NCBI GenBank assembly: GCA_034659275.1
Contig: JAYEGY010000122.1
Span: 29,512-93,511, forward strand
Origin: Bacteroidota bacterium
Lineage (GTDB): Bacteria > Bacteroidota > Bacteroidia > Bacteroidales > VadinHA17
Length of the DNA: 64,000 bases
Direction: 5' to 3'
Part shown: positions 4,327-24,004 of the stretch, piece after piece
Layout: every line of letters begins with the position of its first letter
Position numbering within the stretch: the first letter of the stretch is position 1
Translations under genes and position numbers: made by a program
The notes under the pieces: model-generated
The model's database searches: none
What the model saw: the letters and a program-made list of their open reading frames with translations, nothing else
Told to the model about the DNA's origin: nothing

Positions 4327-4361
4327 GAGGAGGGCTGTTACCAAAACGGCCCTCTTTTTTT
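4327..4361 (-). terminator. Hairpin terminator after nqrF (bidirectional-looking)
   Basis: GAGGGC (4330-4335) pairs with GCCCTC (4349-4354). The hairpin has T-runs on both strands. Confidence 0.55.
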
Positions 4362-4392
4362 ATGTATCATCTCATCTACTCATCTACGGGTT

Positions 4393-5646: not shown

Positions 5647-5657
5647 AATTATGTAAT

Positions 5658-6275: not shown

Positions 6276-6286
6276 AATTCCGGTTT

Positions 6287-6943: not shown

Positions 6944-6946
6944 ATC

Positions 6947-7648
6947 TTATTCATTATTTTTTCCCAGGAATTCAACATATTTAACCAGGCAGTCATAAAT
7001 CATTGATTCAAGCCCTTTACTTGTAATGGTACCACCTGATATTGCATCTACGGCATGGGGGTCATCTTCTTCCGCACCTCCTTTCTGCACTGTTATACTT
7101 ACGAAATCCCCATTCTCAAAAAGTTTCTTATCCTCAAATTGTTCTTCAAACCAGCTCTCATTAATTTCAGCACCCAGCCCCGGTGTTTCCGACTTATGGT
7201 CGAATGTGACACCGTTTATTGTCCTAAGGTCTTCATTAAGAGAAATATAACCATATATGGGACCCCAGAGCCCCTTACCCTCGAGAGGCATTATATAGCT
7301 GTTGCTTCCGTCTTCCATACTGGCGACAAACACAGGCAAGACCTGTTCTTCGACTGGTTTTTTCTGTTCTTTCCTGACATCCACATTAAAAGGATCAACA
7401 TTCTCTACTCTCTCCGCATCATTGTTAATTGCAAAGGACTCGGTAATATATTTATCATAGAGGTTTTCAGCATTATCTTCTGTAGTTTCCACACCCACAG
7501 ATGCCAGGATATTACGTTTCTTCTCTATTTCTGCATTTTTCTCCTTTAGGGGTTGAAGGAGGAGGGCAGCTGAAGAGAGTATTAAAGCGACAATGGCAAC
7601 CATTGCTGCCGCGAAGATGAATATATAAGTGTTACTGAATTGTTTCAT
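6947..7648 (-). CDS. nqrC: Na+-NQR subunit C
   Basis: 233 aa with one TM helix and the FMN-attachment motif 'SGGTITS'. Confidence 0.9.
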   Translation of the reverse strand: MKQFSNTYIFIFAAAMVAIVALILSSAALLLQPLKEKNAEIEKKRNILASVGVETTEDNAENLYDKYITESFAINNDAERVENVDPFNVDVRKEQKKPVEEQVLPVFVASMEDGSNSYIMPLEGKGLWGPIYGYISLNEDLRTINGVTFDHKSETPGLGAEINESWFEEQFEDKKLFENGDFVSITVQKGGAEEDDPHAVDAISGGTITSKGLESMIYDCLVKYVEFLGKNNE

Positions 7649-7660
7649 TGTCGATATCTT

Positions 7661-8818
7661 TTATTTACTTTTTACCCTGTTCAGTCTTCTTTTGATGTTT
7701 GCCTGCACTATATAGTAATCGATCAAAGGGGCAAATACATTCATGAACAGTATAGCCAACATCATTCCTTCGGGGAATGCCGGGTTCAGGACCCTGATAA
7801 GTATTGCAAGTATACCGATAAGCAATCCATATATCCATTTGCCTTTCTCGGTTTGACTGGCGCTCACCGGGTCGGTAGCCATAAATACGGCACCAAAAGC
7901 AAAGCCGCCCATCACAAGGTGGTGCCATGCGGGTATTTCCATGTATGGATTTACTGCAAAAGCATTCATCAACAGCCCCATACCCAGTCCTCCTGCAAAT
8001 ACGCTCAACATTATTTTCCAGCTACCCACCCCGGAAATTACCAGGATAATTGCCCCGATGAGTATTGCTATCGTTGAAGTTTCTCCTATTGATCCCGGTA
8101 TTTTTCCTATAAACATTTCCATTACAGAAGGCATACTGTCAATTTCATACAGTGCGGCCTGTGCCAGTGGTGTGGCTCCTGAAAAAGTATCGGCCACCCC
8201 CTGTCCTTCCACCAGGTTAGCTATCCAGACCTTATCGCCTGACATCCACTGGGGATAGCTAAAGAAGAGGAAGGCTCTTGCCACCAGGGCGGGGTTGAGT
8301 ATATTCATACCGGTACCACCAAAGACCTCTTTACCTATTATTACAGCAAATATCACGGCCAGGGCCAGTTGCCAGAGAGGTACATCCACCGGTACAATAA
8401 GGGGGATTAGCAAGCCCGTGACAAAATATCCTTCGTTTACTTCATGCCCCCTGATCTGTGCAAAAATTATTTCAATGCCCAGTCCCACAATGTAACTCAC
8501 AAGTAAGAGGGGCAGGAATTTAAGGAAGCCAAACCATACCATTTCCCAGAAACCAGCGTCAACATTAATAGACTCGTAATACTGAAAGCCGATATTATAA
8601 ATTCCGAACAGCACCGAAGGTATGAGGGCCATCCACACTGTTATCATCACCCTTTTCATGTCAACACCATCGCGAATATGAGAACCCCTGGATGTTACCC
8701 GGTCAGGCACAAAGATCAATACTTCAATTGCATCAAATAAGGAGTGAAGTTTTTCAAACCTGCCACCTTTTTCAAAATGAGGTTTGATCTTGTCTATTTT
8801 TTTCCTTAGTGCTTTCAT
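7661..8818 (-). CDS. nqrB: Na+-NQR subunit B
   Basis: 385-aa polytopic protein with the flavinylation motif 'FSGATPL'. Confidence 0.9.
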   Translation of the reverse strand: MKALRKKIDKIKPHFEKGGRFEKLHSLFDAIEVLIFVPDRVTSRGSHIRDGVDMKRVMITVWMALIPSVLFGIYNIGFQYYESINVDAGFWEMVWFGFLKFLPLLLVSYIVGLGIEIIFAQIRGHEVNEGYFVTGLLIPLIVPVDVPLWQLALAVIFAVIIGKEVFGGTGMNILNPALVARAFLFFSYPQWMSGDKVWIANLVEGQGVADTFSGATPLAQAALYEIDSMPSVMEMFIGKIPGSIGETSTIAILIGAIILVISGVGSWKIMLSVFAGGLGMGLLMNAFAVNPYMEIPAWHHLVMGGFAFGAVFMATDPVSASQTEKGKWIYGLLIGILAILIRVLNPAFPEGMMLAILFMNVFAPLIDYYIVQANIKRRLNRVKSK

Positions 8819-8841
8819 TATTAAGCTAATAGTTTATTATT

Positions 8842-10191
8842 TTAACTCATCTCCTTAATCATCAGCTCAAGTCCTTTACGGATAATTGACTGCATCTCTA
8901 TTTTGGAAGGGCAGATAAATTCACACAGTGCAAAATCTTCCTCAGCCACCTCGTATATTCCCAGTTGCTCCATTTTATCGATATCATCGACAAGAATGGA
9001 TTTGAGCAATTGCATCGGGTAAATATCCATAGGAAGTACTTTCTCATATTCACCTGTAACAACAAATGGCCTTTCTCCACCATGCATATTTGTATCGAGC
9101 CGGTACTTTTTACCGGGCATCAGCCAGGTAGTGAAAGTACGTGAGAAGCTGAATTTCTTCAATCCCGGTTTGATCCATCCGAAGAACTCGTAGTAATTGC
9201 CTTCGGGAATAACCGTTATTGTTGAATCATAATAGCCTAAGAAGCCGTCGGGTTCAATCTTTTGCCCGGTAAGTACATTACCACTGATATACCTTACATT
9301 GTGGGACAAAATATTGTCTTTTACCATTGTGGATATACTTGCCCCTTTACGGGTACGATAGTACCTGGGTTTTTTTACTTCTGAACCTGTAAGAGCCACT
9401 ATCTTTGAAGGAACATATTTACCTTCGTTAAACAGGCGGCCTATCGATATTATATCCTGCAGGTTAACATACCATACTACTTCACCCTTGTTCACAGGAT
9501 CGAGATGATGTATTTGCACCCCCACATTTCCTGAGGGGTGAGGGCCTGAAAAATAGTTAATAATAACGCCGGGGGTCTTTTTCAGGAGGGCCGAGGTTGA
9601 GTTAGTACTAAGACTGAGGAAAACATCACCGTCAGTAAGTTTCCTCAATATATATATACCGGTAAGGTAATGTTCCCTGGGTAAAAGTCCTATGATATAA
9701 TCAAAGTCGGCTGCGAGTGGAGCGGTATCAAAACCGCTAATAAATATAGACTTGGGAGTATCTTCGGGCCTGGCTACTATATGATAAGGCCTCTGGCGAA
9801 CAGCGGGCCACAAGCCGGATTCAAGCAGTTTATTTTTTATGGTTTTGACGTCCAGTTTTTCAGGATCGCCCTTACCAAAATTTTCATAACCCTCACCTTT
9901 CCTCTCAATCACCACTTCCAGTATCCGGCGGCGTTCCCCCCTTACAATATCACGTACCACGCCGCTCACCGGTGACGTATATTTGATCTTTTCATTCTTT
10001 TTATCAAAGAAGAGTGTTGTGCCTGCCTTGACTTCTGCGCCGGGTTTGACAATCATTTTAGGAACCAGGCCGGGAAAATCAACGGGTTTTACAGCATACC
10101 TGTCGGGGGGTTCTTCAGGTATCAGGATTTTATCCGCCTTACCTTTAATCCTGATGTTCAGCCCTTTGCGTAACTTTATCTGATTGGACAT
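8842..10191 (-). CDS. nqrA: Na+-NQR subunit A
   Basis: 449-aa soluble subunit and first gene of the operon. It has the NqrA-like N-terminus 'KLRKGLNIRIKG'. Confidence 0.9.
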   Translation of the reverse strand: MSNQIKLRKGLNIRIKGKADKILIPEEPPDRYAVKPVDFPGLVPKMIVKPGAEVKAGTTLFFDKKNEKIKYTSPVSGVVRDIVRGERRRILEVVIERKGEGYENFGKGDPEKLDVKTIKNKLLESGLWPAVRQRPYHIVARPEDTPKSIFISGFDTAPLAADFDYIIGLLPREHYLTGIYILRKLTDGDVFLSLSTNSTSALLKKTPGVIINYFSGPHPSGNVGVQIHHLDPVNKGEVVWYVNLQDIISIGRLFNEGKYVPSKIVALTGSEVKKPRYYRTRKGASISTMVKDNILSHNVRYISGNVLTGQKIEPDGFLGYYDSTITVIPEGNYYEFFGWIKPGLKKFSFSRTFTTWLMPGKKYRLDTNMHGGERPFVVTGEYEKVLPMDIYPMQLLKSILVDDIDKMEQLGIYEVAEEDFALCEFICPSKIEMQSIIRKGLELMIKEMS

Positions 10192-11734: not shown

Positions 11735-12250
11735 TCAATGTTTTTTATGCACATCAATCCCGTACTGCATATATATAGTATGCTGGAGTGTTTTCAGTAT
11801 TTCAGACATATATTCCCTGACTGCTTTTACAGAGCCCGGCAAGGTATATATAAGGCATTGCCCCATTATCCCGGCTATTGACCGGCTGAGCAATGCATTT
11901 GCTTGTTTCATTCCGTACTTTATCCTGATATGATCCATTATTCCCGGTATTTCAATATCGATGAGGTCTTTAACCACATCCACAGTTATATCCCTGGGGC
12001 CTATACCGGTACCACCTGATGTGATAATGATATTATAGTTACGGGAATACTCATTAAGTATCTGGCGCAGCCTGGCCTTATCATCATGTATTACTATTAT
12101 TTCCGTTTCCAGAGGCCAGGCTATACTATTGAAATAATCAGTTATCATTTCTTTTACCTGGGGACCGCTCAGGTCTTCATACTCACCATCTGCTGCCCTG
12201 TCGGACAAGGTTATAATGAGCACTTTAAATTTACCGGGCAGATCATTCAT
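11735..12250 (-). CDS. moaB: MoaB/MogA-family molybdenum cofactor biosynthesis protein
   Basis: 171 aa with 'ITSGGTGIGPRDIT', the MoCF_biosynth signature. It overlaps the 3' end of moaC. Confidence 0.85.
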   Translation of the reverse strand: MNDLPGKFKVLIITLSDRAADGEYEDLSGPQVKEMITDYFNSIAWPLETEIIVIHDDKARLRQILNEYSRNYNIIITSGGTGIGPRDITVDVVKDLIDIEIPGIMDHIRIKYGMKQANALLSRSIAGIMGQCLIYTLPGSVKAVREYMSEILKTLQHTIYMQYGIDVHKKH

Positions 12251-12692
12251 TTTTTTGTTTTTCTATTAAATGAATATTATTTATCACCATATCTTTATCC
12301 ACCGCCTTACACATATCATATACCGTAAGCAGTGCTATGGAAGTAGCTGTGAGGGCCTCCATTTCAACCCCTGTCCTGCCCCTGCTTTTTGCTTCACATT
12401 CGACGCTTATTCCCTCTTTTCCGAGAGTAGCTGTAAGCATTATTTTGTCAACAGTGATATTATGGCACAAAGGGATTAGGTCTGATGTTTTTTTGGCGGC
12501 CTGCACGCCTGCTATCTCAGCCACTGTGAGAACATCACCTTTTCTTATTTCGTTCTTTTTAATGAGTTCTATTGTAGAGGGAGACAGCATTATTGTTCCC
12601 CCGGCACGTGCAATCCTGTCGCTATCGGGCTTATCCCCGACATCAACCATGCGGGCACGGCCCTGTTGGTCGGTATGTGATAATTTTTTCAT
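12243..12692 (-). CDS. moaC: Cyclic pyranopterin monophosphate synthase MoaC
   Basis: 149 aa with 'KGDVL..A.IAG..AAKKT..LIPLCH' and 'GVEMEALTA', which are MoaC hallmarks. Confidence 0.9.
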   Translation of the reverse strand: MKKLSHTDQQGRARMVDVGDKPDSDRIARAGGTIMLSPSTIELIKKNEIRKGDVLTVAEIAGVQAAKKTSDLIPLCHNITVDKIMLTATLGKEGISVECEAKSRGRTGVEMEALTATSIALLTVYDMCKAVDKDMVINNIHLIEKQKNE

Positions 12693-12717
12693 AATTCATA
12701 AATCATAATTCATAAAT
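12690..12717. repeat. Perfect 14-nt tandem duplication (CATAATTCATAAAT x2) spanning the moaC start codon
   Basis: 12690-12703 equals 12704-12717, followed by a degenerate third copy. The repeat fills almost the whole moaA-moaC spacer. Confidence 0.9.
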
Positions 12718-12735
12718 TATAATTAATACTTTTTC

Positions 12736-13536
12736 TTAGCCACCGATATTATAAAATTCGTCTTTAGTATTAATTGTTCCAAATTCAGGTTTATTTTCCA
12801 CTGCCAGTTTAATTGCTTTTTCAGCTCCCAGTTCCCTGACATTATATTCAAGATCACTGAAGAGGCAAGGTTTCAACATACCATTAGCGGTCAATCTCAG
12901 CCTGTTGCATGTTTCACACTCACCTCCACAGCCTCCTTCAACAGTAGTGTATATGCCTTTAGACAGGTTCATTTCTTTTATATATCTTACTTCAAGGCCT
13001 TTCTTTGCAGCATAGTCAGCAACCATTTTCGCATCAGGTTCATTCTTTGATTCTTTTACGACACAATTCAGTTTCACAGGGCTTAAGCCGGCTTCTATGG
13101 CTGCATCGATGCCATCCAGTACCTGGTTCAGGTCACCTCCCCTGGTAATCCACCTGAACTTATGAGGATCCATTGAATCGAGGCTCACATTAATCCTGTG
13201 CAATCCTTTTTCAGCCAGCACCACGGCAAATTTTCTCAGTAGTGTGCCATTGGTAGTCATTGATAAATCATTAATGCCATCGATCCCGGCTATCATGCCA
13301 ACAAGAACAGGCAGGTCTTTCCTGACCAGTGGTTCACCACCTGTCAGTCTCACCTTATCTATTCCCATCCGTACAGCGATTTTAACAAATTCAGTGATTT
13401 CGTCATAAGTAAGAATATCTTCATGCCTCAAAAGTTTAATTCCTTCGGCTGGCATGCAATAGCGGCATCTCAGGTTACACCTGTCGGTTACTGATATTCT
13501 CAAATAATTAATCCTTCTGTTAAATCTGTCGTACAT
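12736..13536 (-). CDS. moaA: GTP 3',8-cyclase MoaA (compact form)
   Basis: Radical-SAM motif 'CNLRCRYC', a C-terminal cluster 'CETCNRLRLTANGMLKPC' (C-x2-C-x13-C) and a terminal 'GG'. It is only 266 aa. Confidence 0.85.
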   Translation of the reverse strand: MYDRFNRRINYLRISVTDRCNLRCRYCMPAEGIKLLRHEDILTYDEITEFVKIAVRMGIDKVRLTGGEPLVRKDLPVLVGMIAGIDGINDLSMTTNGTLLRKFAVVLAEKGLHRINVSLDSMDPHKFRWITRGGDLNQVLDGIDAAIEAGLSPVKLNCVVKESKNEPDAKMVADYAAKKGLEVRYIKEMNLSKGIYTTVEGGCGGECETCNRLRLTANGMLKPCLFSDLEYNVRELGAEKAIKLAVENKPEFGTINTKDEFYNIGG

Positions 13537-14698
13537 CTACTATTTCTCCTTTTTTTATTTCTTTAATCCCCACAGGAACCTTCATTATACCATATGCTCC
13601 CGGAAGTGCATTAATATGGGCTGAACCGTGGTATTCAACCGGCGTAACCGTTTCATCGTTGTTTAAAATAACGGGAACCCATGACATCCGCCCGGCCCGC
13701 TTACGAAAATAGTCTTTCCCCAGTTTATGCTTTCGCTGTCCTTCTTTGATCATTGATCCCATAGATCTGTTTATCAATGGTCTTACAAATAGTTCGAACT
13801 GTATAAATGATGATACAGGATTTCCGGGTAAACCGAATATCAAAGCATTTCCATGAACTCCGAATGTAGTTGGCTTACCTGGTTGAACAGCTATCCTGTC
13901 AAAGATTATTTTTACTCCTGCTCTTGTCATCACCTGAGGCACAAAATCGAAGTCTCCCATTGACACTCCACCTGTAAGCAGGACTATATCACATTCATCT
14001 ATTGCCTTAACCATTATATCATAGGTAATACTTTCTTCATCAGGGGCTATGCCATAATAAACAGGTTCAGCGCCTGCCCTGCTTACCTGGGCCATTAGCT
14101 GGTATGCATTACTGTTTCGTATTTGTGATGGAGCCGGTTTGATATATGGTTCCACCAATTCATTACCCGTGGTAATAACTGCAATTTTCAAGCGTTTTTT
14201 TACAGCTACCTTCACTACACCTACTGTTGCCATAACAGCAATATCCTGAGGCCTAATAAGACGACCCGCTTTTATTACCGTATCCCCCACCCTTATGTCC
14301 TCTCCCATCATGGCAATATTGTTCTTTCCAGGTTTCCCCTTAAACCTGACCCTGCCATTTTTTTCTTCTGCGTCTTCGACCATGAAGACCCAGTCGGCAC
14401 CCTCCGGCATCGTAGCTCCTGTCATTATTTTAATACATTCTCCGGCTTCAACTTTCTTTAAGGCAGGCTTCCCGGCAGGAAGTATATCCTTTATAACAAG
14501 CTCTTTATCCAGGTCTTCTTTCCGGCATGCATAGCCGTCAACAGCAGGCTTATCAAAGGGAGGCATGTTAATATCACTGATAATATCTTCAGCAAGGAAT
14601 CTTCCAAGTGAATCCAAAATCTCAACATATTCAATCCCTGTTTCAAGGATGTATTTTTCAGTTATTGCCAAAGCCTCTTCATAAGGTACCATTATCAA
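13520..14698 (-). CDS. moeA: Molybdopterin molybdenum/tungsten transferase MoeA
   Basis: 392 aa with MoeA N-terminal, MoCF and C-terminal domain patterns ('LLTGGVSMGDFD', 'VAVQPGKP', 'GLPGNPVS'). Confidence 0.9.
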   Translation of the reverse strand: MIMVPYEEALAITEKYILETGIEYVEILDSLGRFLAEDIISDINMPPFDKPAVDGYACRKEDLDKELVIKDILPAGKPALKKVEAGECIKIMTGATMPEGADWVFMVEDAEEKNGRVRFKGKPGKNNIAMMGEDIRVGDTVIKAGRLIRPQDIAVMATVGVVKVAVKKRLKIAVITTGNELVEPYIKPAPSQIRNSNAYQLMAQVSRAGAEPVYYGIAPDEESITYDIMVKAIDECDIVLLTGGVSMGDFDFVPQVMTRAGVKIIFDRIAVQPGKPTTFGVHGNALIFGLPGNPVSSFIQFELFVRPLINRSMGSMIKEGQRKHKLGKDYFRKRAGRMSWVPVILNNDETVTPVEYHGSAHINALPGAYGIMKVPVGIKEIKKGEIVDVRQI

Positions 14699-14705
14699 TT
14701 CAATT

Positions 14706-15746
14706 TTAGATTACTCTCAATTCACTTACCGAAAAACACAAAAATACTAATTGTCCTTTTTTTAGTGATAATTCTTCAAGTTTCTTGCTGCTTATGAGGA
14801 CATGATAAAGATCCCCAGAATTAACAAATAGTTCATAGCCGCTTTCGGCCCTGTTTAATTCTGTTATTTTACCCCTTATACAATTATCTCTGTTGTTTTG
14901 TTCTACAGGAGACAGATGAATTGAATCACTCTTTATTAAGAGAAGCCCGTTTTCAGGATAATCACCCGCTGGCAGTGTATATTTACAGTTTTCAGATACT
15001 GCAATATTTTTCCCTTTTTCCCTGTATATTTTAACCCGGTAAAAATTCCTTATACCCGCAAAGCGGGCAACAAACTTATTTACTGGCCTTGAAAATACGC
15101 TGTCTGTATCACCTGTTTGTAATATCCTTCCATTATGTATAACTCCCACCCTGTGTGACAACCTCACAGCTTCGCTATAATCGTGGGTTACATGAAGCAT
15201 GGTTATCCCCGCTTCATTAATCCTGCGCAGCAGTTGCCTGATATCGTCCCGCAGGGGGGCATCAATGGAAGCCATCGGCTCATCAAGCATAATTAATTCA
15301 GGTGAATTGACAAGTGTACGTGCCAGTGCAAGCCTTTGTTTTTCACCTCCTGAAAGGTCCTCCGTTTTGCGATCCAGTAAGTGTGCTATATTGACGTTCT
15401 CAGCCATCTTCTTTACCCTGTTGTCTATTTCAACTTTTGGTAATCTTTTTATTTTCAATGAATAAGCAATATTGTCATATACAGTCATGTGCGGGAATAT
15501 TGCAAAATCCTGGAACACCAATCCAATTTTCCTTTTCTGTATTTTCTCGTGAGTAATATCCCTTCCGTTAAGATAAATAGTGCCTCTATCAGGTGATCTC
15601 AAACCTGCAATAATTTCCAGAAGCTGTGATTTACCGGCACCTGAACGCCCGAGAAGAATAAAATATTCCCCCTTTGAGACATTCAGGTTTATATCTTTCA
15701 GGGCAAAATCCCCGTAATTCTTCGATATGTTTTTGATTTCAAGCAT
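14706..15746 (-). CDS. ABC transporter ATP-binding protein with a C-terminal TOBE-like extension (tungstate/molybdate type)
   Basis: Walker A 'GRSGAGKS', signature 'LSGGEKQR' and Walker B 'LIMLDEP'. It follows the permease and binding-protein genes. Confidence 0.8.
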   Translation of the reverse strand: MLEIKNISKNYGDFALKDINLNVSKGEYFILLGRSGAGKSQLLEIIAGLRSPDRGTIYLNGRDITHEKIQKRKIGLVFQDFAIFPHMTVYDNIAYSLKIKRLPKVEIDNRVKKMAENVNIAHLLDRKTEDLSGGEKQRLALARTLVNSPELIMLDEPMASIDAPLRDDIRQLLRRINEAGITMLHVTHDYSEAVRLSHRVGVIHNGRILQTGDTDSVFSRPVNKFVARFAGIRNFYRVKIYREKGKNIAVSENCKYTLPAGDYPENGLLLIKSDSIHLSPVEQNNRDNCIRGKITELNRAESGYELFVNSGDLYHVLISSKKLEELSLKKGQLVFLCFSVSELRVI

Positions 15747-16568
15747 TTAGCCGTTATTCACAGTTACTTTCTTAAGGTTTATTTGGTCTTTATTAGAGAA
15801 AATTCTGATTATTATAAATATCACCAGTGCCACAAGAATAAAGAACAAGGAAGCAGGCCTTGCGTATGACAGGCCGAACTGGTTGAATCTTTCATATATC
15901 AATACCGGAGCGGTCATGGGGTGATATGCAATGATCACTACTGCTCCAAATTCACTCATTCCCCTTGCAAACATCATAATAAATCCTGACGCAATATTTC
16001 TCCATGTCAGGGGCAATGACACGGTAAAGAACATTTTTACGGGTGAAGCACCCAGGTTCATGGCTGCCTTTTCCAGTCGTTCAGGAACTGCTACAAAGCC
16101 ATCTCTTGCAGCATTAATCAGGAATGAAAGACTGACAAATGCCATTGCCATAGCTATGCCTACAGGGTTACCAACGAGGTTCAAACCTATGCCTTCAGCT
16201 ATTTTCCCCAGCAGGCCTTCCCGTGAAATAAATCCCAGCATTGCTATGCCGGCTGCAGAGTGAGGTAAGACCACGGGCAGGTCAATAAGCCCCTGCACTA
16301 TTTGTTTACCGGGGAAATTATACCGGGCCATCATCCATGCAAAGGGTATGGCCATAATAGAAAAAGCCAGGGTGGCCATGAATGCAACCGAAAGTGTCAG
16401 CCATACACTGTCCTGGACCTCTTCATCCTTTACTGTCTGAAAAAAATCAGCAGGTGATGTATCGAGGACCATCCCTATGAGTGGTGCCAGGATAAAAAGG
16501 AGTACCAATGATGACAGTACCAGTATTATCCAATGAAATGTACTCCGTTTATTTACTTGAAAAGCCAT
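15747..16568 (-). CDS. ABC transporter permease (molybdate/tungstate family)
   Basis: 273 aa, polytopic, with an EAA-like loop 'EKAAMNLGASP'. Confidence 0.8.
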   Translation of the reverse strand: MAFQVNKRSTFHWIILVLSSLVLLFILAPLIGMVLDTSPADFFQTVKDEEVQDSVWLTLSVAFMATLAFSIMAIPFAWMMARYNFPGKQIVQGLIDLPVVLPHSAAGIAMLGFISREGLLGKIAEGIGLNLVGNPVGIAMAMAFVSLSFLINAARDGFVAVPERLEKAAMNLGASPVKMFFTVSLPLTWRNIASGFIMMFARGMSEFGAVVIIAYHPMTAPVLIYERFNQFGLSYARPASLFFILVALVIFIIIRIFSNKDQINLKKVTVNNG

Positions 16569-16648
16569 TATTTAAAATGCTGACCGGTTATGAACAAATA
16601 TGCATATCGACAAAAATAAAAATAATACCCGAGAAAGCTGGTATATTC

Positions 16649-17599
16649 TTATTTGAATAATGTTCCGAGTCTTTCCGGTAAAGCTTCCGCCGGACCGTTA
16701 AAACGAAGATCAATGGGAGCTTGTCCGTTTTCACGTAATACCTTACGCCCTTTTTCACCCAGGAAAAAAGCCATGAAATCCACAGCGTCATCCCTGTTGG
16801 GTGCATCGTTAATCAAAGTCAGGCCATAAATCATGTTGCTGCCCTTAATCCGGACGGTTTCACCGGGCTTGTCGCCTGTAATGTCCACACTTACCGAATT
16901 ATATAATTCTTCAAATGCAGGGTCAGAGAGGTTTATTTCGGAGGGGAGGCTTATATAATCAAGCCCGTGTTGTTCACAAACCGACTTATATTCAATGATA
17001 TAATCCAATGCCTTTGTTTCTATCAGGGCAACCAGGTCAACGCCCTTGGGCCTGATCATGTTCCTGTCTTTGCCCGTAAGCTTCTCTGCCAGTCCGTTTT
17101 GCTTGTAGTAGTCAGCAGCCAGTTTGAACATCATTACCGTACGGTAGCCACATGGGTCGGCATCTGGATCAGCACGTCCATATACAACATCCTCATCAGA
17201 CAGCACTTCATACCAGTTGCCAGGACCAACAATATCAGCATGTACTGACTTTTCATGATATGCTATTACCATTTCATTTGTTGCAAACCAGATATTCCAA
17301 TCGGTATATTCCGGCATAAGAAATTTTTCGATCACCTTGTAATCAGCTGATGCCATGATATCGCATTCTTTGCCAAGCTCGGTTATTTTACGGGTACAGG
17401 CAACACTGCCTGCTCCTTCGAGCATAATTTTTATATGGGGGTTGATCTCCATATACTCTCCTGCTATCTTCTTGAGAGGTACAGAAAGGCTTCCTGCATG
17501 GAAAATGATTATCTCATTTTCAGTTTTGTTTTTACATGCTGCAAAGGAAAGAAGGCTTATCAAAAAAAATATTGTAAATACCTTATTTCTGTTCTTCAT
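16649..17599 (-). CDS. wtpA: WtpA-like tungstate/molybdate substrate-binding lipoprotein
   Basis: Lipobox 'SFAAC'. 'IIFHAGSLSVP...GAGSVACTRKITELGKECDIMASADY' matches my recollection of archaeal-type WtpA binding proteins. Confidence 0.6.
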   Translation of the reverse strand: MKNRNKVFTIFFLISLLSFAACKNKTENEIIIFHAGSLSVPLKKIAGEYMEINPHIKIMLEGAGSVACTRKITELGKECDIMASADYKVIEKFLMPEYTDWNIWFATNEMVIAYHEKSVHADIVGPGNWYEVLSDEDVVYGRADPDADPCGYRTVMMFKLAADYYKQNGLAEKLTGKDRNMIRPKGVDLVALIETKALDYIIEYKSVCEQHGLDYISLPSEINLSDPAFEELYNSVSVDITGDKPGETVRIKGSNMIYGLTLINDAPNRDDAVDFMAFFLGEKGRKVLRENGQAPIDLRFNGPAEALPERLGTLFK

Positions 17600-17981
17600 C
17601 AGGTCTTTTATTTATGCTCCAGAAAAATTTCCTTGTTATTTCTTTCATTGATGTATTAAACTGTTCGATTAGTTCATTATAAGCATTCATAAGTTCATTT
17701 CCTTCCGCCGTTAGTTCGGTATGACCACCTTCAGCTCCCCCCCGATGTTTTTCAACAAGATTAAATCCAAGTTTTTCCTCCACTTCTCTAATCATACCCC
17801 AGGCCTTCCGATAACTCATACTCATCTCAGCAGCTGCCGAAGCCAGGGATCCTGTTTTCCTTATTGCATTCAGGAGGTCAAAGCCTTCCCAATCCAGTAT
17901 TTTTTCATCACTAAGCGTTTCGAGGTTAATGTGGTATTTCAGGAATACATCATAATATTTTGAACCTTTGGGACCGGCCAT
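17583..17981 (-). CDS. ModE N-terminal-domain-only (winged HTH) regulator
   Basis: 132 aa. 'LLNAIRKTGSLASAAAEMSMSYRKAWGMI..EEKLG..LVEKHRGG..GG.TELT..G' is a ModE/LysR-type HTH. No Mop/TOBE molybdate-binding domains follow it. Confidence 0.7.
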   Translation of the reverse strand: MAGPKGSKYYDVFLKYHINLETLSDEKILDWEGFDLLNAIRKTGSLASAAAEMSMSYRKAWGMIREVEEKLGFNLVEKHRGGAEGGHTELTAEGNELMNAYNELIEQFNTSMKEITRKFFWSINKRPDEEQK

Positions 17982-18036: not shown

Positions 18037-18318
18037 TTATTTATAAAGACATATATAAGCTGTGGGCTCCTTCACGTTAACCTTGAAGGTACTGCCCTTA
18101 TCAACAATAAAAGATTCTCCTCCTTTAAAGTCTTTCCATTCGGACTCTCCCGGTTGCAAAACCGTGAGAGTCCCTGATGTAACTGTCATATGTTCAACAG
18201 TAGAGGTATTGAACTCATATTTGCCCGGGGCCATAACACCAATGGTGGCATGACCGCCGGCATTCTCAAAGGCAATTGATTTCACATTGCCGTCAAAATA
18301 TTCATTAATTTTGAACAT
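18037..18318 (-). CDS. ppnP: Pyrimidine/purine nucleoside phosphorylase PpnP (DUF1255)
   Basis: 93-aa cupin. 'NEYFDGNVKSI.F......T.GVM.PG.Y.F.T...E.M.V..G.L' matches the YaiE/PpnP pattern. Confidence 0.8.
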   Translation of the reverse strand: MFKINEYFDGNVKSIAFENAGGHATIGVMAPGKYEFNTSTVEHMTVTSGTLTVLQPGESEWKDFKGGESFIVDKGSTFKVNVKEPTAYICLYK

Positions 18319-19675: not shown

Positions 19676-21829
19676 TTATTGGTAATCCTTCACGAGCTCT
19701 ATCAATTCCGGCAGGTCCATTCCAATTTTTTTCAGGAATTCGATTCTGGGCACTCCCTTGCTATTCCATCCCCTTCTTTTATATACGGCGTCAATAAGGT
19801 CTTCGTATCGTTTTTCCCTGTACTTACGTGTAATTGCCAGTTTTTCCTCAATTGTTTTCCCTTCAGGATCGACCCCTATTAGTTCTTTCATCTGTTTATC
19901 ATATCTTTCAGCCCTCGATTCATATTCTTCAACCGTAACAGGTCCGGCTGCCCGATACGGCTGCCTGTCGTGCTCACGTGTTCCATACCCTCTCCTGAGG
20001 TTGAATATACGCTGGAAGTTATAAACCCTTTCAGAGTCTTCTATCATTTTGTGCTTATCAAATTCCCTGCCCGTAACAGCTTTATATATAGTTACATAAT
20101 TATCTACATGCTCGGGTACCTTGGCAGGTTCATCTGTTTCGGCATTATCTTCAGGTTCAACATCATTCCATGGCAGCTTGCAGAGTCCCACCAATCCAAA
20201 CCAGGTACGGAACATGGGGAAATAATGCAATGCTTCAGCCTTATCCTCGAATGTCGGTATCTGGTTATTGACCATATCCATAAATATAAGCCATGCTTCA
20301 TCATGCTGGGGGCCCTTATTGGTCATTGCAAAGCCTCCCTGCTGAGCCAGGGATTCTTTAGAGATATACTGTGAATACTCGAGCCCTTTATTCTCCATCC
20401 CTATATCATTGAGAAAATCAGGGTCGCCCCATCCTTTCTCTATGAACATCTCTTTCATTTTGCGTACGCCCATTCCTGCTATCTTACCAAAGCCTTCACC
20501 ACGGCTCAGCCTGTGCATAAGTTCCATAGCCGAGTCAGCATTCCCAAAATTTAGTTTAAGCCCGCCGGTTCTTTCTTCATTAAGGATGCCATTTTCATAA
20601 CATTCCATTATAAAAGCAAGCAGGGTGCCCCATGTAATGGTACAGATGCCATATGTATCACAATAGAAATTATATTCAAGGATATAGTCAGTACTGAAAA
20701 TACCACAGTTTGAACCAAGTCCGCCTGCACTTTCATATTCAGGTCCGTCCACAATGACTTTCTGCCCTTTATACGGACCTGTTCTAACCTCGTAGTTATC
20801 AACGCCCTTGGAGCATGACATACTACAACCTATCCAGCATCCATCGGGTATTCCCTGGGTAAATAATTTTTTCCACTTATCAGATTCAATTTTGAAAGCG
20901 TCGGGATGACTGCCGAACTTATAATTATCTGTCGGCAGGAGATCATGATCATTCATAATTTCTATAAGGTGCGCCGTACCCACTTCTTTCATCTGTGACT
21001 GCTCATGGTCAAATTCACGCATTTCACGGTTGAAGCGTTTTCCCCTTTCCTTGATAGCTTCTAAATCGACCACATTATTCAGGTTCCCTTTAACCCCGGG
21101 CACTTTGCAAACAAGAGCTTTGATCTTCTTATCACGGAACACTGTTCCTGTACCTCCCCGGCCTGCCTGTTTCATCCTGACAACTTTTCTCTTGGGATCG
21201 TAAAAACTGAAATTTAACATTCCTATGAGCGAATTATCCGCACCGCTTCCCGTTGACACAACAGCTACATTCTTTTTATCCTTTTCATTATCGGCATACA
21301 TCTCCGTGAGTTGTTCTGCCAGTATATGGCTATCAAGGGCTTCTTCCGGTGCTTCGTATATCCCTATGGTGTGGTTAATACCATCAATATATATAATAAC
21401 ATCTTTTTCAGCCTTGCCCTGTAGTTCCAGCGCATCATAACCGGCAAACTTGAGGAAGGGTCCAAAAAAGCCTCCGACATTGTTGTCCATAACCGAATCG
21501 GTCTGGGGCGATATTGTTACCACAAGTGACTTCCCTGTTCCCGAATACTGTGTAATCCCACCGATTGGCCCGGATGAAATAATTATTTCATTCTTTGGAT
21601 CATTCCAGGGAGTGCGTGGCTCGGTGGCATCCCATAGAAGTCTTAAGCCATACCCTCTCCCACCTATGAATTTTTCTTTCATCTCGGAAGGAACATCTTT
21701 CTCCTTGATCTCGTTGGTGCCAACATTAATGTAAAGTATTTTATCTGTATAACCTTTATCAAGAGGAAGCCAATCATATGAATATTCCTTGATTAATTTG
21801 TGTTTTTCTTTAATTGCCTGTACGTCCAT
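19676..21829 (-). CDS. Aldehyde:ferredoxin oxidoreductase family tungsto/molybdo-pterin enzyme (long, 717-aa form)
   Basis: AOR N-terminal domain ('ILYINVGTNEI..K.....KFIGGRGYGLRLLW'), a Cys cluster 'CWIGCSMSC', and an AOR C-terminal tail 'YKRRGWNSKGVP'. Confidence 0.85.
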   Translation of the reverse strand: MDVQAIKEKHKLIKEYSYDWLPLDKGYTDKILYINVGTNEIKEKDVPSEMKEKFIGGRGYGLRLLWDATEPRTPWNDPKNEIIISSGPIGGITQYSGTGKSLVVTISPQTDSVMDNNVGGFFGPFLKFAGYDALELQGKAEKDVIIYIDGINHTIGIYEAPEEALDSHILAEQLTEMYADNEKDKKNVAVVSTGSGADNSLIGMLNFSFYDPKRKVVRMKQAGRGGTGTVFRDKKIKALVCKVPGVKGNLNNVVDLEAIKERGKRFNREMREFDHEQSQMKEVGTAHLIEIMNDHDLLPTDNYKFGSHPDAFKIESDKWKKLFTQGIPDGCWIGCSMSCSKGVDNYEVRTGPYKGQKVIVDGPEYESAGGLGSNCGIFSTDYILEYNFYCDTYGICTITWGTLLAFIMECYENGILNEERTGGLKLNFGNADSAMELMHRLSRGEGFGKIAGMGVRKMKEMFIEKGWGDPDFLNDIGMENKGLEYSQYISKESLAQQGGFAMTNKGPQHDEAWLIFMDMVNNQIPTFEDKAEALHYFPMFRTWFGLVGLCKLPWNDVEPEDNAETDEPAKVPEHVDNYVTIYKAVTGREFDKHKMIEDSERVYNFQRIFNLRRGYGTREHDRQPYRAAGPVTVEEYESRAERYDKQMKELIGVDPEGKTIEEKLAITRKYREKRYEDLIDAVYKRRGWNSKGVPRIEFLKKIGMDLPELIELVKDYQ

Positions 21830-21889
21830 CTGTTATTATTTTATTTAATTATCCTAACGCTTAATTATTGTTAGATCTAAGTTACAAAT

Positions 21890-21897
21890 CAAATATA
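21890..21897 (-). promoter_or_regulatory. Candidate -7 box (TATATTTG on the minus strand) for the AOR operon
   Basis: Perfect TAnnTTTG 61 nt upstream of the AOR ATG. No clear -33 TTTG. Confidence 0.35.
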
Positions 21898-21946
21898 GGG
21901 CATAAAATGAGATATATCAATATGTTACAAAATGCATAACGGAACA

Positions 21947-21959
21947 AATTATTAATTAT
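21947..21959. repeat. Left copy of the 13-nt direct repeat AATTATTAATTAT flanking the GC-rich island
   Basis: Identical to 22071-22083. Confidence 0.9.
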
Positions 21960-22070
21960 GAAAGGCGAGAGGCGAGATGCGAACCGAACGGTGCGAGTAT
22001 GCACAAGCATACGAGTACCGTGAGCTCACGAGCTGTTAGTGGTTGTGGCCGGTGGGAGCGAGTAAATGCG
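21960..22070. other. 111-nt GC-rich island in an AT-rich divergent intergenic region
   Basis: It contains four GCGAG and two ACGAG repeats, the dyad GTATGC-ACAA-GCATAC (21997-22012) and the perfect 12-nt palindrome CGTGAGCTCACG (22019-22030). Confidence 0.8.
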
Positions 22071-22083
22071 AATTATTAATTAT
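22071..22083. repeat. Right copy of the 13-nt direct repeat AATTATTAATTAT
   Basis: Identical to 21947-21959. Confidence 0.9.
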
Positions 22084-22087
22084 TAAT

Positions 22088-22095
22088 TACTTTTG
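22088..22095 (+). promoter_or_regulatory. Candidate -7 box (TACTTTTG) for the DUF364-thiF-thiS-like operon
   Basis: TAnnTTTG match 17 nt upstream of ATG 22112. Confidence 0.35.
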
Positions 22096-22111
22096 AAGGA
22101 AAAGAGATCTT

Positions 22112-22834
22112 ATGGAAGAACCGCTGAAGCATTTCTATTCAATAAAAGGCTTTAAGAGGGCACATATTAAAGAATGTGTGATAGGTGACAAATACGTAGC
22201 TATATTGCATGAGAGCGGTAATATTGGCGTATGCGCCACACTTGGAACTAAAATGGATGACAAGCTGCTTATCGGCGAAGAAGCCGATCTGGCTAAGCCG
22301 GTACACAGGATAATCCTGAATGCTTATTACAATTCCATTTTCAATTATGAGCGGGACTATGATGATATCTGTGATATCTTTGACCGGATTGATTTCAGCA
22401 AATACAGCAGGATTGTGATGATAGGATATTTTGAGAGCCTGTACGATAAATTCGCCAGGAATTGTATAAACCTGGATGTATTTGATATTCAGAAGGAAAG
22501 TCATATTCTGGCAGATATTTCAAAAATGAAAGAATCACTTATAGGAGCTGAAACCATAATACTTACCGGCACCACAATTTTTAATAATACTTTCAATGAT
22601 ATAGTTAGCATAACGCCCCCGGGATGTAATATTTTTTTGCTTGGTCCATCAAATATTTTATCGGAAGAAATGTTCAGGTATCCCAATATCAAGGTTGTTT
22701 TCGGGTCGGTATTTATGCATGATGACAGCCGGGTGTTAGAAAAGGTGGGGGCAGGTTACGGTACCAGGGGATTTCTTCCCTACCTTAATAAAGTGTATAT
22801 AATAAGCGATGATTACAAAGATGAAATTCAGTGA
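22112..22834 (+). CDS. DUF4213/DUF364 ('putative heavy-metal chelation') Rossmann-like protein
   Basis: 240 aa. The N-terminal part reads 'VIGDKYVAILHESGNIGVCATLG'. The C-terminal part reads 'IVMIGYF...AETIILTGTTIFNNTF...IFLLGPS...VFGSVF', which matches my recollection of the DUF364 pattern. Confidence 0.55.
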   Translation: MEEPLKHFYSIKGFKRAHIKECVIGDKYVAILHESGNIGVCATLGTKMDDKLLIGEEADLAKPVHRIILNAYYNSIFNYERDYDDICDIFDRIDFSKYSRIVMIGYFESLYDKFARNCINLDVFDIQKESHILADISKMKESLIGAETIILTGTTIFNNTFNDIVSITPPGCNIFLLGPSNILSEEMFRYPNIKVVFGSVFMHDDSRVLEKVGAGYGTRGFLPYLNKVYIISDDYKDEIQ

Positions 22835-23426
22835 AATAAAAAATCATTTAGCAGGCTATACTGTCGGCATTGCAGGAGCGGGCGGACTGGGGTCGAACTG
22901 CGCTGTTGCCCTTGCACGAAGTGGCATAGGCCGTTTAATAATAGTTGATCATGATACAGTGGATGTTGATAACCTGAACAGGCAGTATTATTTTGCTGAC
23001 CAGGTCGGGATGAAAAAAACGGAAGCCCTCAGGGATAACATCAGAAGGATTAAGCCTGACATAGGGATCGATATTTATGATACAGAGCTTAATGAGAGTA
23101 ATATCCCTGTTATTTTCAGGGATTGTGATATAATAGTAGAGGCCCTGGACCTGGACTCGATGAAGAAAATGCTTGCGGAGACGGTATTAAGCAAGTGGCC
23201 TGAGCGGCCTCTTATAATTGGCTCGGGCCTTGCCGGCTATGGTAAAACCAATCAACTCAGGGAAAGGACCATAGACAAGACGCTTATAGTATGTGGGGAT
23301 GAAGATTCAGAAGCATCGGAAGAGCTTCCGGCTATGGCACCACGGACAGCAATTGTTGCAAACATGCAGGCCAATGCAGTTGTTGAAATATTAATGAAAA
23401 GGAAGAATTATGAAAATAATGCTTAA
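22809..23426 (+). CDS. Short ThiF/MoeB-family E1-like adenylyltransferase
   Basis: 205 aa with 'GIAGAGGLGSNCAVALARSGIGRLIIVDHDTVDVDNLNRQ'. There is no rhodanese domain. It overlaps both neighbours, which suggests translational coupling. Confidence 0.8.
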   Translation: MITKMKFSEIKNHLAGYTVGIAGAGGLGSNCAVALARSGIGRLIIVDHDTVDVDNLNRQYYFADQVGMKKTEALRDNIRRIKPDIGIDIYDTELNESNIPVIFRDCDIIVEALDLDSMKKMLAETVLSKWPERPLIIGSGLAGYGKTNQLRERTIDKTLIVCGDEDSEASEELPAMAPRTAIVANMQANAVVEILMKRKNYENNA

Positions 23427-23613
23427 TAACAGGCCTGAAGAATTCGACAAGGAAGAAATGACTGTTAGTGAAATGCTTGATATTAAGAGATTTACCTACA
23501 GAATGCGTCTCGTAAAGATAAATGGGAAACTCATAAAAAAGGACGAATACGATAAGGCTATAATTAAGGATGGTGATGATGTGAAGATGTTATACCTTAT
23601 GAGTGGTGGATAG
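23410..23613 (+). CDS. ThiS/MoaD-family sulfur-carrier protein (C-terminal GG)
   Basis: 67 aa with a beta-grasp pattern 'INGK.I.K..YDK..IKDGDDV....LMSGG'. Confidence 0.75.
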   Translation: MKIMLNNRPEEFDKEEMTVSEMLDIKRFTYRMRLVKINGKLIKKDEYDKAIIKDGDDVKMLYLMSGG

Positions 23614-23659: not shown

Positions 23660-24004
23660 ATGAACGATTCGGTTAAAGTTTTATTTGATAAGATACCGCC
23701 GATACTCAAGAACAGATATTTTCTCACCCTTGTTGTATTCCTGGTGTGGATACTGCTTTTTGACAATAATAATCTTATCGACAGGTATCATTACCTGAAG
23801 AATCTCAGGCAGCTGGAAAAAGATAAGAACTATTACCAGGAAAGGATAGAAGAAGACCGGAGGAAGCTGAATGAACTCAAAACAAGTGATGAAAATCTTG
23901 AGAAATTTGCCCGCGAACAATATTTCATGAAGAAAGAAAACGAAGACATCTATATCATAGTGGACGAAGACGGTAATAAACTGCCGGATACTGAGGATAA
24001 GTGA
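23660..24004 (+). CDS. FtsB/DivIC-like septum formation initiator family protein
   Basis: 114 aa with one TM helix and a coiled coil. 'ARE.YFMKKENEDIY' is typical of the family. Confidence 0.65.
   Translation: MNDSVKVLFDKIPPILKNRYFLTLVVFLVWILLFDNNNLIDRYHYLKNLRQLEKDKNYYQERIEEDRRKLNELKTSDENLEKFAREQYFMKKENEDIYIIVDEDGNKLPDTEDK

Follow-up and report, generated by a model that had tools for sequence, protein, structure and literature searches.

In the 64,000-nt stretch of DNA analyzed here (the window), three overlapping genes on the forward strand encode a DUF364 protein (22112..22834, 240 aa, with enolase-N-like and Rossmann-like domains), a short ThiF/MoeB-type E1 adenylyltransferase (22809..23426, 205 aa), and a WorX-like, ThiS-type beta-grasp sulfur carrier with a C-terminal Gly-Gly (23410..23613, 67 aa). 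A sequence-only reading of this DNA had reported overlaps of 26 nt between DUF364 and E1 and 17 nt between E1 and ThiS, and our ORF calls reproduced these coordinates exactly; if the E1 instead starts at Met5, the first overlap is 14 nt. The assignment of the three products to DUF364, a 205-aa E1, and a GG-ending 67-aa beta-grasp protein was likewise borne out by HMM matches. The 240-aa ORF matches the PF04016 DUF364 family (E 3.5e-21; 75.8 bits, cut-off 23), with a weak DUF4213 match that lies under that family's cut-off. The E1 matches PF00899 ThiF (1.1e-34), NF006395 ThiF (255 bits, cut-off 159), and TIGR02354 thiF_fam2 (206 bits, cut-off 152). It contains the motif GAGGLGSNCAVALARSGIGRLIIVDHDTVDVDNLNRQ, and its GxGGxG, DxD, NLNRQ, and EAxD motifs together with Cys31, Cys106, and Cys162 are at least 95% conserved across 134 orthologs. 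The carrier, which ends in LMSGG, matches TIGR01683 thiS (41.9 bits, cut-off 37.45) and PF02597 ThiS, while no MoaD model matched it at E<=0.01. Its top match in a PDB search was the Geobacter "ThiS" 2k5p, and in our tree it falls on the ThiS side, outside a MoaD clade with support of 100/99. The locus thus holds a GG-terminated beta-grasp gene adjoining an E1 adenylation-domain gene, with the catalytic motifs kept.

Genomic surroundings

A divergent intergenic region of 282 nt (21830..22111), without any Rfam match, is common to this trio and to the gene for a tungsten-type aldehyde:ferredoxin oxidoreductase (AOR) on the reverse strand (19676..21829; long form, 717 aa, AFOR_N and AFOR_C domains), which is the likely client enzyme of the trio. 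Beyond it, also on the reverse strand, lies a W/Mo block comprising moaB, moaC, moaA, moeA, wtpC, wtpB, wtpA, and a ModE-HTH regulator (11735..17981), in which all four of the moa and moe genes mentioned by the sequence-only reading were located. The moaA product is 266 aa long and moaB is plain, without a MOSC domain; tblastn found no MOSC domain in the window or in its genome. The block also includes a 93-aa PpnP-like cupin (18037..18318, reverse strand), and PpnP (PF06865) adjoins DUF364 and ModE in other genomes. No Rfam family reached threshold in the window, and hence no TPP or Moco riboswitch was detected there.

Neither MoaE nor a further ThiS/MoaD-family gene occurs on the window's contig. 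The genome, however, encodes a canonical MoaD (77 aa, ending in PPFAGG) and MoaE on contig C70, and a MoeB-type E1 split over the ends of contigs C36 and C68. The earlier statement that moaD and moaE are missing therefore holds for the window but not for the genome, where a full canonical set of MoaA/C/D/E, MoeB, MoaB, and MoeA coexists with the trio. Given this set, the additional E1/ThiS relay is not strictly needed there for dithiolene synthesis.

Conservation of the operon and its association with AOR

In other genomes, 56 of the 80 closest DUF364 loci have the overlapping trio, a recurrence showing that the arrangement is not due to chance. Every trio locus with 3 kb or more of upstream sequence has a divergent AOR (47/47), and 4 loci contain a second E1-ThiS pair inside an AOR-E1-ThiS-AOR operon. 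In the nearest relative (L029) the three trio proteins are 87%, 91%, and 94% identical to those of the window, compared with 96% for AOR and 78% for GT2; the trio is as conserved as its neighbors, which by sequence comparison we count as a sign of selection. DivIC and GT2, which are unrelated genes, are also syntenic with the trio, and much of the conserved adjacency is shared ancestry inside one order.

The broader association was measured in 251 evenly sampled Bacteroidales genomes. Of the genomes with DUF364, 51/55 encode AOR, versus 58/196 of those without it; of the genomes with the short E1, 81/88 do, versus 28/163 of those lacking it. Together with the 47/47 divergent loci, these counts confirm the association with AOR that the sequence-only reading had proposed to check, and the genomic link between trio and AOR is strong, although co-occurrence could be due in part to a common anaerobic lifestyle. 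At the level of individual loci, AOR lies within 5 kb of the short E1 in 38/87 cases, while 49/87 E1-ThiS loci lie among housekeeping genes with no adjacent AOR. DUF364 adjoins AOR in only 17/54 genomes of the order sample and E1-ThiS in only 12/54, the two being apart in most genomes.

Independence from thiamine biosynthesis

Since the E1 and the carrier pass the cut-offs of ThiF (NF006395, TIGR02354) and ThiS (TIGR01683) models, and the carrier is closer to thiamine ThiS than to MoaD in the tree, the pair might be assigned to thiamine thiazole synthesis, or to another Ubl function such as tRNA 2-thiolation or protein conjugation. We consider these functions very improbable. The observation that no thiG or thiC accompanies the trio extends to the whole genome, which is 95% complete and in which neither ThiG nor ThiC was found; ThiE lies on a different contig. 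ThiG is rare wherever the trio genes occur in the 251-genome sample, with 3/55 DUF364-positive genomes carrying it versus 60/196 of the remaining genomes, and 3/88 E1-positive genomes versus 60/163. The ThiG-adjacent ThiFs of Bacteroidales are longer (~240-250 aa), only 27-38% identical to the short E1, and constitute a separate clade, and the thi-operon ThiS proteins also form a clade of their own (support 99/94). No TtuA/NcsA-type or JAB gene lies near the trio. With thiamine ThiF/ThiS the pair therefore has in common its HMM classes and presumably the chemistry of adenylation followed by thiocarboxylate formation, but a thiamine module is ruled out: ThiG and ThiC are missing, the pair is anticorrelated with ThiG, the ThiFs of thiamine operons lie in another clade, and the window has no TPP riboswitch. 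The sequence-only reading had named two findings that together would count against it, canonical moaD/moaE elsewhere in the genome and co-variation of the trio with thiamine genes; the former was found, while ThiG showed the opposite of the latter. An automatic annotation of "ThiF/ThiS, thiamine biosynthesis" would be wrong for a large group of such genes.

Distribution of MoaE, MOSC-MoaB, and DUF364

The sequence-only reading had also raised the idea that DUF364 replaces MoaE, which would make the trio a non-canonical molybdopterin synthase with a ThiS-like carrier. Favoring this are the lack of moaD and moaE in the window's cluster, the position of DUF364 as the sole uncharacterized cytoplasmic enzyme of that cluster, and the flavin- or pterin-like pocket ligand proposed in the original DUF364 structure paper (PMC2954201). 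The presence of MoaE in the window's genome and in 16/18 genomes of its clade argues that DUF364 is not a MoaE substitute, and the fold of DUF364 is unrelated to that of MoaE. In the order-wide sample, 7/55 DUF364-positive genomes also carry MoaE, and DUF364 occurs in only 48 MoaE-less genomes. DUF364 is missing in about half of the MoaE-less, AOR-bearing Bacteroidales genomes. Of the 81 sample genomes that combine AOR with the short E1, some half are likewise without DUF364; G057 and G152, which have AOR and MoaC but no MoaE, are examples. The idea is already largely refuted and we regard it as scarcely credible.

The protein whose distribution complements that of MoaE is the MOSC-MoaB fusion, not DUF364. 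A MOSC ortholog is present in 103/251 genomes, and only 3/24 MoaE-positive genomes carry MOSC as well. [quoted passage not shown] Five high-quality genomes that have AOR and MoaC contain no true ThiS/MoaD-family gene other than the one linked to the short E1, and MoaE was not found in these even at E<=10. Among 119 MoaC-positive genomes, the short E1 is found in 73 and MoaE in 21, with both found only in the window's genome. The genomes of the window's clade contain no MOSC at all.

DUF364 and MOSC were also considered as mutual alternatives. All 20 DUF364-negative Moco operons (20/20) have the MOSC-MoaB fusion, while the seven MoaB-bearing loci that resemble the window's (the window itself, five DUF364-positive loci, and G125, which is without DUF364) yielded no MOSC domain. 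This alternation was rejected because most DUF364-positive genomes of the order sample carry MOSC too.

Structure and contexts of DUF364

A phmmer search of PDB with the DUF364 protein gave no match, and profile and fold searches were needed to place it. Its AlphaFold model (pLDDT 89.6) has 3npg and 3l5o as top Foldseek matches (E about 1e-12, TM 0.72-0.76), and a profile search matched 3npg with an E of 8e-7. We compared it with Dhaf4260 (PDB 3l5o), PH1506 (3npg), M. maripaludis MMP_RS02675 in a modABC operon, and Streptomyces Orf5. The trio protein shares the two-domain fold of the family, the common motifs (R..NA..N, D, G, an acidic residue after beta-2, N, and GP[ST]), and a gene context of tungstate/molybdate uptake and regulation, but it is only 15-19% identical to the solved structures, and coupling to a sulfur-carrier pair and AOR is unreported for the family. 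DUF364 genes were noted next to W/Mo transporters in 2010 (PMC2954201), and a preprint (10.1101/2024.03.05.583561) likewise covers a W/Mo/V transporter context. The sole characterized DUF364 enzyme, the Streptomyces methyl-azetidine-carboxylate synthase Orf5, converts a methyl-SAM by cyclization into an azetidine amino acid (PMC12930334). A connection of that reaction to pterins is not obvious, and such cyclization of a SAM derivative, which belongs to a secondary-metabolite cluster, is without an evident counterpart at the trio locus.

Within Bacteroidales, DUF364 adjoins AOR in three genomes (G018, G159, and G108) where no short-E1 ortholog is found at E <= 1e-15 and a MoeB-type E1 is retained elsewhere. 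It also lies at the head of, or next to, a modE-wtpABC operon in G033 and a ModE operon in G074 and G204. The idea that DUF364 might take the place of the E1 in genomes without the short form was considered too: of 12 such genomes, 7 have a MoeB-type E1 elsewhere, and the other 5, which have no E1 at all, are fragmented assemblies. The closest DUF364 homologs outside Bacteroidales occur in AOR-less clusters of the NifX-like, MinD-ferredoxin, CGGC, and radical-SAM kind.

A proposed role in tungsten cofactor maturation

[quoted passage not shown] The E1/ThiS pair is best read, from its sequence and context, as having a sulfur-carrier role in the synthesis of the AOR pterin cofactor, and would be a dedicated ubiquitin-like sulfur relay of the type named the "WorX/ThiF" pair of Class I tungsten oxidoreductases. 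In such a relay the short E1 would adenylate the C-terminal Gly-Gly of the ThiS-type carrier, the adenylated carrier would be converted to a thiocarboxylate, and this would give its sulfur to the pterin cofactor, presumably at the dithiolene or possibly as a further sulfur ligand. The earlier suggestion that the operon supplies the dithiolene sulfur gains from the ties to AOR and W-cofactor genes and from the non-thiamine nature of the pair, but its premise, the lack of moaD and moaE, does not hold genome-wide. The relay may be kept beside MoaD/MoaE for a client-specific or non-dithiolene role. The other part of the module, translationally coupled to the relay, would be the DUF364 protein, a Rossmann-type enzyme that acts on small molecules and belongs to the tungstate/molybdate regulon. 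We infer for it an adenosyl- or nucleotide-type ligand and a part in tungsten or cofactor handling. It is conceivable, if rather unlikely, that DUF364 is a new W-cofactor maturation enzyme working directly with the ThiS-type thiocarboxylate, for example by installing a non-dithiolene sulfur (a terminal sulfido ligand) or by processing an adenylated pterin or tungstate intermediate for AOR-family enzymes. Such a role would explain why the operon is kept by AOR despite a complete MoaD/MoaE/MoeB pathway.

The distribution of MOSC-MoaB described above also bears on whether the pair is specific to AOR. E1/ThiS could be a general Bacteroidales molybdopterin sulfur relay that works with MOSC-MoaB in place of MoaD/MoaE/MoeB and is redundant in the window's genome, which acquired or kept MoaD/MoaE, with DUF364 an unrelated W-regulon gene fused into the operon by chance. 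The near-complete mutual exclusion of short E1 and MoaE among MoaC-positive genomes, the scarcity of MOSC in MoaE-positive genomes, the MOSC-MoaB fusion in every DUF364-negative Moco operon, and the five good genomes in which E1-ThiS is the only Ubl all fit a general relay, as do two genomes in which moeA-moaA-moaC lies directly 5' of E1-ThiS. However, the well-conserved trio persists beside MoaE in 16/18 MOSC-less genomes of the window's clade, which argues for a non-redundant function, and a client-specific role is indicated both by the adjacency of AOR to the short E1 and by the operons of AOR-E1-ThiS-AOR order. Moreover, the Aromatoleum aorDE genes aid AOR despite a canonical pathway (PMC9295118). 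We therefore hold a purely general relay to be unlikely. Another explanation is that the trio makes a sulfur-containing small molecule, such as a thiocarboxylate or nicotianamine-like chelator of tungstate/molybdate, with DUF364 acting as an aminocarboxypropyl-type enzyme or a SAM-dependent lyase and with ThiS-COSH donating the sulfur in the manner of PDTC or thioquinolobactin synthesis. The use of a SAM derivative by Orf5 with release of an azetidine amino acid (PMC12930334), the presence of DUF364 in W/Mo/V/Fe uptake operons (PMC2954201), the known ThiS/E1 pairs that build thiocarboxylate siderophores (PMC1779556), and four loci in which DUF364 is adjacent to ThiS with no short E1 between them (L078, L081, L187, L191) are consistent with this. 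Yet the trio loci have no JAB peptidase, acyl-activating enzyme, or siderophore-cluster exporter or receptor, E1-ThiS on its own tracks Moco genes, and most genomes keep DUF364 and E1-ThiS separate, which makes a chelator pathway quite improbable.

Relation to known systems

An AOR-linked ThiS/MoaD-like gene with an E1 was recognized as a "tungsten cofactor biosynthesis" neighborhood by Iyer, Burroughs & Aravind in 2006, who described it as MoaD and MoeB linked to AOR (PMC1779556); Bacteroidota are not in their list. The names WorX/thiF were given to the pair of Class I tungsten oxidoreductases in 2026 (PMC13328260). Comparable genes are aorD/aorE in Aromatoleum (PMC6365974, PMC9295118) and UblC (TK1065) in Thermococcus kodakarensis (PMC11323500). 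When aorDE, the Ubl genes of the AOR operon, were co-expressed in a host that makes Moco normally, the activity of recombinant AOR rose from 4.5 to 16 U/mg (PMC9295118), and Ubl mutants of Thermococcus lost MPT and AOR/FOR activity (PMC11323500). The Bacteroidales trio resembles these systems in that genes for a small GG-terminated beta-grasp protein and an E1 adjoin an AOR-family gene and a separate canonical Moco pathway coexists. A role in W-cofactor/AOR maturation is predicted for those systems and partly shown in two organisms, and by analogy is predicted for the trio. The trio differs in that its carrier is ThiS-type rather than MoaD-type, its E1 is the short 200-aa thiF_fam2 form, it is divergent from aor rather than within the aor operon, and it is translationally coupled to DUF364, which is absent from those descriptions. 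The suggestion that the role of the operon is undescribed thus does not hold for AOR-linked Ubl/E1 genes (PMC1779556, PMC13328260) or for the W/Mo context of DUF364 (PMC2954201); both halves were already published, and it is their fusion into one DUF364-E1-ThiS operon that is new.

MOSC-containing Moco operons without MoaD/MoaE have been noted for Dehalobacter (PMC4751268). Most relatives of the trio locus are of this Moco/Wco operon type of anaerobes, and in the five high-quality genomes checked they share the short E1/ThiS pair as the only Ubl, whereas in the window's genome and clade MoaB is plain, MOSC is absent, and the trio is accompanied by canonical MoaD/MoaE/MoeB. The trio locus and its relatives offer a clean natural experiment on AOR cofactor maturation, in which most AOR-bearing Bacteroidales are without detectable MoaD or MoaE and rely on MOSC-MoaB, while the window's clade has the canonical synthase yet keeps the DUF364-fused pair by AOR. 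Comparing both types could show how molybdopterin forms without MPT synthase, and which extra step AOR-type enzymes need. Aldehyde oxidoreductases of the tungsten type are found widely among anaerobes, gut bacteria included.

A few E1-ThiS loci are associated with another kind of aldehyde-metabolizing gene. A link to tungsten-independent aldehyde metabolism was considered and judged coincidental, as it involves only four loci in genomes that mostly have AOR elsewhere. In the AOR-less genome G041, two aldehyde dehydrogenase genes precede E1-ThiS, and in Lentimicrobiaceae-type loci an aldehyde dehydrogenase gene lies between E1 and DUF364, with a product that by its sequence looks like a proline-catabolic (P5C) dehydrogenase.

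An operon of DUF364, E1 and ThiS-type genes divergent from AOR

Three plus-strand genes lie opposite an AOR-family gene. They encode a DUF364 protein of 240 aa (22112-22834; PF04016, 75.8 bits), a short ThiF/MoeB-type E1 of 205 aa (22809-23426; exceeding the cut-offs of two NCBIfam models, NF006395 (ThiF) and TIGR02354 (thiF_fam2)), and a ThiS-type beta-grasp protein of 67 aa with a Gly-Gly C-terminus (23410-23613; above the TIGR01683 cut-off). These matches bear out the identities proposed in the sequence-only reading, and the ORF calls reproduce its coordinates exactly, with overlaps of 26 nt between DUF364 and E1 and 17 nt between E1 and the ThiS-type gene. A match of the DUF364 protein to DUF4213 is weak and under that family's cut-off in the profile search.

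The tungsten-type AOR gene (717 aa, 19676-21829, minus strand) is separated from the trio by 282 nt; this intergenic region contains a GC-rich stretch at 21947-22083, flanked by AATTATTAATTAT direct repeats. Beyond AOR, away from the trio, are genes for a secreted 366-aa protein, a PpnP-like cupin inside the tungsten block (18037-18318, minus strand), a ModE HTH protein, wtpABC, moeA, a 266-aa moaA, moaC, and a plain, 171-aa moaB. PpnP homologues adjoin DUF364 and ModE in other genomes too (loci L062, L068, L078, L264, L265). No Rfam family reaches threshold in the window, so it contains no TPP or Moco riboswitch. T9SS and Nqr genes identify the organism as a member of the Bacteroidota. A DivIC/FtsB septum gene (23660-24004, plus strand) lies 3' of the ThiS-like gene, an arrangement shared by most Bacteroidales loci. 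Either E1-ThiS-DivIC or MOSC-MoaB, HD protein, DivIC is the conserved gene order, and no function evidently explains it.

Association with AOR and tungsten genes

One evenly drawn set of 251 Bacteroidales genomes, the order sample, was searched for every marker; overlaps were obtained by set algebra, and a short-E1 orthologue was defined by at least 42% identity. AOR is found in 51/55 genomes with DUF364 versus 58/196 of the remainder, and in 81/88 genomes with the short E1 versus 28/163 of the remainder, while among the 80 closest DUF364 loci of the genome collection 56 contain the trio and all 47 trio loci with at least 3 kb of upstream sequence have a divergent AOR; these counts overstate independence, since the genomes are related and the unrelated neighbors DivIC and GT2 are also syntenic. 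The proposed association of the trio with AOR and its tungsten cofactor is upheld by this distribution. An AOR-E1-ThiS-AOR operon with a second E1-ThiS pair occurs in four loci; in L046, L055, L056, and L074 (about 4200-9800 each), this second pair sits between two AOR paralogues on one strand (AOR-ThiS-ThiF-AOR), a short way upstream of the trio. AOR lies within 5 kb of E1 in 38/87 loci, and in two genomes moeA-moaA-moaC is directly followed by E1-ThiS. The remaining E1-ThiS loci show housekeeping synteny with DivIC, FolC, and ExbBD-TonB, and no other conserved partner was found in them.

DUF364 is tied to tungsten independently of E1-ThiS. It adjoins AOR in genomes with no detected short-E1 orthologue, which have a MoeB-type E1 elsewhere, and it heads or adjoins the modE-wtpABC operon in genome G033 and a ModE operon in G074 and G204. 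Within the order sample, DUF364 adjoins AOR in 17/54 genomes and E1-ThiS in 12/54.

The closest DUF364 homologues outside Bacteroidales occur in AOR-less clusters with genes of the NifX-like, MinD-ferredoxin, DUF134, DUF5320, CGGC, radical-SAM, and ARMT1 types. Where DUF364 has no AOR context (L075, L080, L083, L086, L088, L089, L262), its clusters encode a pair of MinD/CbiA-ferredoxin ATPases along with NifX-like, DUF134, DUF5320, CGGC, and ARMT1/DUF89 proteins, a radical-SAM enzyme, a glyoxalase, and an ArsP-like permease; this set looks like an uncharacterized metal or cofactor cassette of anaerobes. Lentimicrobiaceae-type loci (L050, L068, L084, L122, L164) carry a 545-aa aldehyde dehydrogenase (PF00171) between E1-ThiS and DUF364 that, judged by its sequence, looks like a P5C dehydrogenase. 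Two tandem aldehyde dehydrogenase copies precede E1-ThiS in genome G041 (L147), in which AOR was not found.

Thiamine synthesis and MoaE substitution as alternatives

The E1 and carrier scores would fit a thiamine operon, and among solved structures the carrier is closest to 2k5p, which comes from Geobacter and bears the annotation "ThiS"; SAMP2 and PF1061 are next. A single ThiE gene is present in the window's genome, on another contig, and neither ThiG nor ThiC was found in this assembly (95% complete, 137 contigs). ThiG, present in 63/251 genomes of the order sample, occurs in only 3/55 of those with DUF364 and 3/88 of those with the short E1. ThiG-adjacent ThiFs of Bacteroidales, at about 240-250 aa, are longer than the window's E1 and share only 27-38% identity with it. 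In a tree of 88 GG-terminated carriers, thi-operon ThiS proteins form a separate clade (support 99/94), MoaE-adjacent MoaD proteins form a distant one (100/99), and the window's carrier groups, with good support, with other E1-linked carriers; thus the carrier is ThiS-like by sequence, yet is not the thiamine ThiS. Together these observations rule out a thiamine role for the trio.

A second possibility, that DUF364 substitutes for MoaE, arose because the W/Mo block has no moaD or moaE. Both are indeed missing from the window, but the genome has them elsewhere: contig C70 carries MoaD (77 aa, ending in PPFAGG, best-scoring models MoaD) and, convergent with it, MoaE. A MoeB-type E1 is in two pieces, one at an end of contig C36 and one at an end of C68. 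These genes and the window's moaA, moaC, moaB, and moeA add up to a full canonical pathway even with the trio left out. MoaE is also found in 16/18 genomes of the window's clade, and DUF364 as a MoaE substitute is rejected. The genome further encodes three DMSO-reductase-family proteins and a second AOR. Its third ThiS-family match (contig C1:1390-2130, L004), a 246-aa fusion of an N-terminal ThiS-like beta-grasp domain and a C-terminal domain that carries paired CxxC motifs, is apparently unrelated to the trio.

Predicted roles of the E1/carrier pair and DUF364

The E1 has a full set of adenylation motifs and three conserved cysteines, and the carrier retains its Gly-Gly, from which it is safe to infer that the E1 would adenylate the carrier and a carrier thiocarboxylate would then form. 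The most likely acceptor of this sulfur is the pyranopterin cofactor destined for AOR. AOR-linked Ubl/E1 genes have been read as serving this cofactor (PMC1779556; WorX/thiF in PMC13328260), and support comes from increased recombinant AOR activity on aorDE co-expression in a host with the normal pathway (PMC9295118) and from loss of MPT and AOR/FOR activity in Thermococcus Ubl mutants (PMC11323500). Because the window's genome also has MoaD, MoaE, and MoeB, the role of the pair there is probably client-specific or additional.

Structure modeling with fold and profile searches confirms the window's protein as a DUF364 family member. The sole characterized DUF364 relative cyclizes methyl-SAM (PMC12930334), and the recurrent W/Mo context of the family has been on record since 2010 (PMC2954201; preprint 10.1101/2024.03.05.583561). 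Fold, relative, and context lead us to read DUF364 as a predicted tungsten-regulon enzyme binding an adenosyl- or nucleotide-type ligand. The sequence-only reading is partly supported: the AOR/tungsten-cofactor link holds, and the thiamine and MoaE-substitute readings fail. It had also called the role undescribed; each half, AOR-linked Ubl/E1 and DUF364 with W/Mo genes, is already described as a prediction, and what is new is their joining as DUF364-E1-ThiS in one operon beside AOR.

The ThiS-type pair with and without MoaE

MoaC is found in 119/251 order-sample genomes and MoaE in only 24. The short E1 accompanies MoaC in 73 genomes and MoaE does so in 21; the window's genome is the only one of these with both. 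In five high-quality genomes with AOR and MoaC, two of them closed, MoaE was not found even at E<=10, and the sole true ThiS/MoaD-family gene is the one adjoining the short E1. The ThiS-type pair is thus the only sulfur carrier in these five MoaE-less genomes, and elsewhere it persists alongside MoaD/MoaE; both observations are additions of this analysis.

The cofactor operon is moeA-moaA-moaC-[MOSC-MoaB fusion] in all 20 DUF364-negative genomes examined. A MOSC orthologue is present in 103/251 genomes and shared with only 3 of the 24 that have MoaE, making the fusion and MoaE nearly mutually exclusive in Bacteroidales. MOSC proteins were proposed as a possible MPT-synthase replacement in Dehalobacter (PMC4751268), and MOSC-MoaB is the best candidate for such a stand-in where MoaE is missing. 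The fusion is about 310 aa long (loci L212-L231, e.g., L217:10755-11687). In G125 (L104), from the same family as the window's genome, AOR, MoeA, MoaB, and the E1-ThiS pair are present, and MoaC, MoaE, MOSC, and DUF364 were not found (reported completeness 100%, 360 contigs). The window's clade is the opposite of the MOSC-MoaB type, with MoaE in 16/18 genomes, MOSC in none of them and a plain MoaB, and nonetheless retains the trio. Identities of the three proteins to those of the nearest relative are 87%, 91%, and 94%, versus 96% for AOR, a conservation resembling that of the neighbors.
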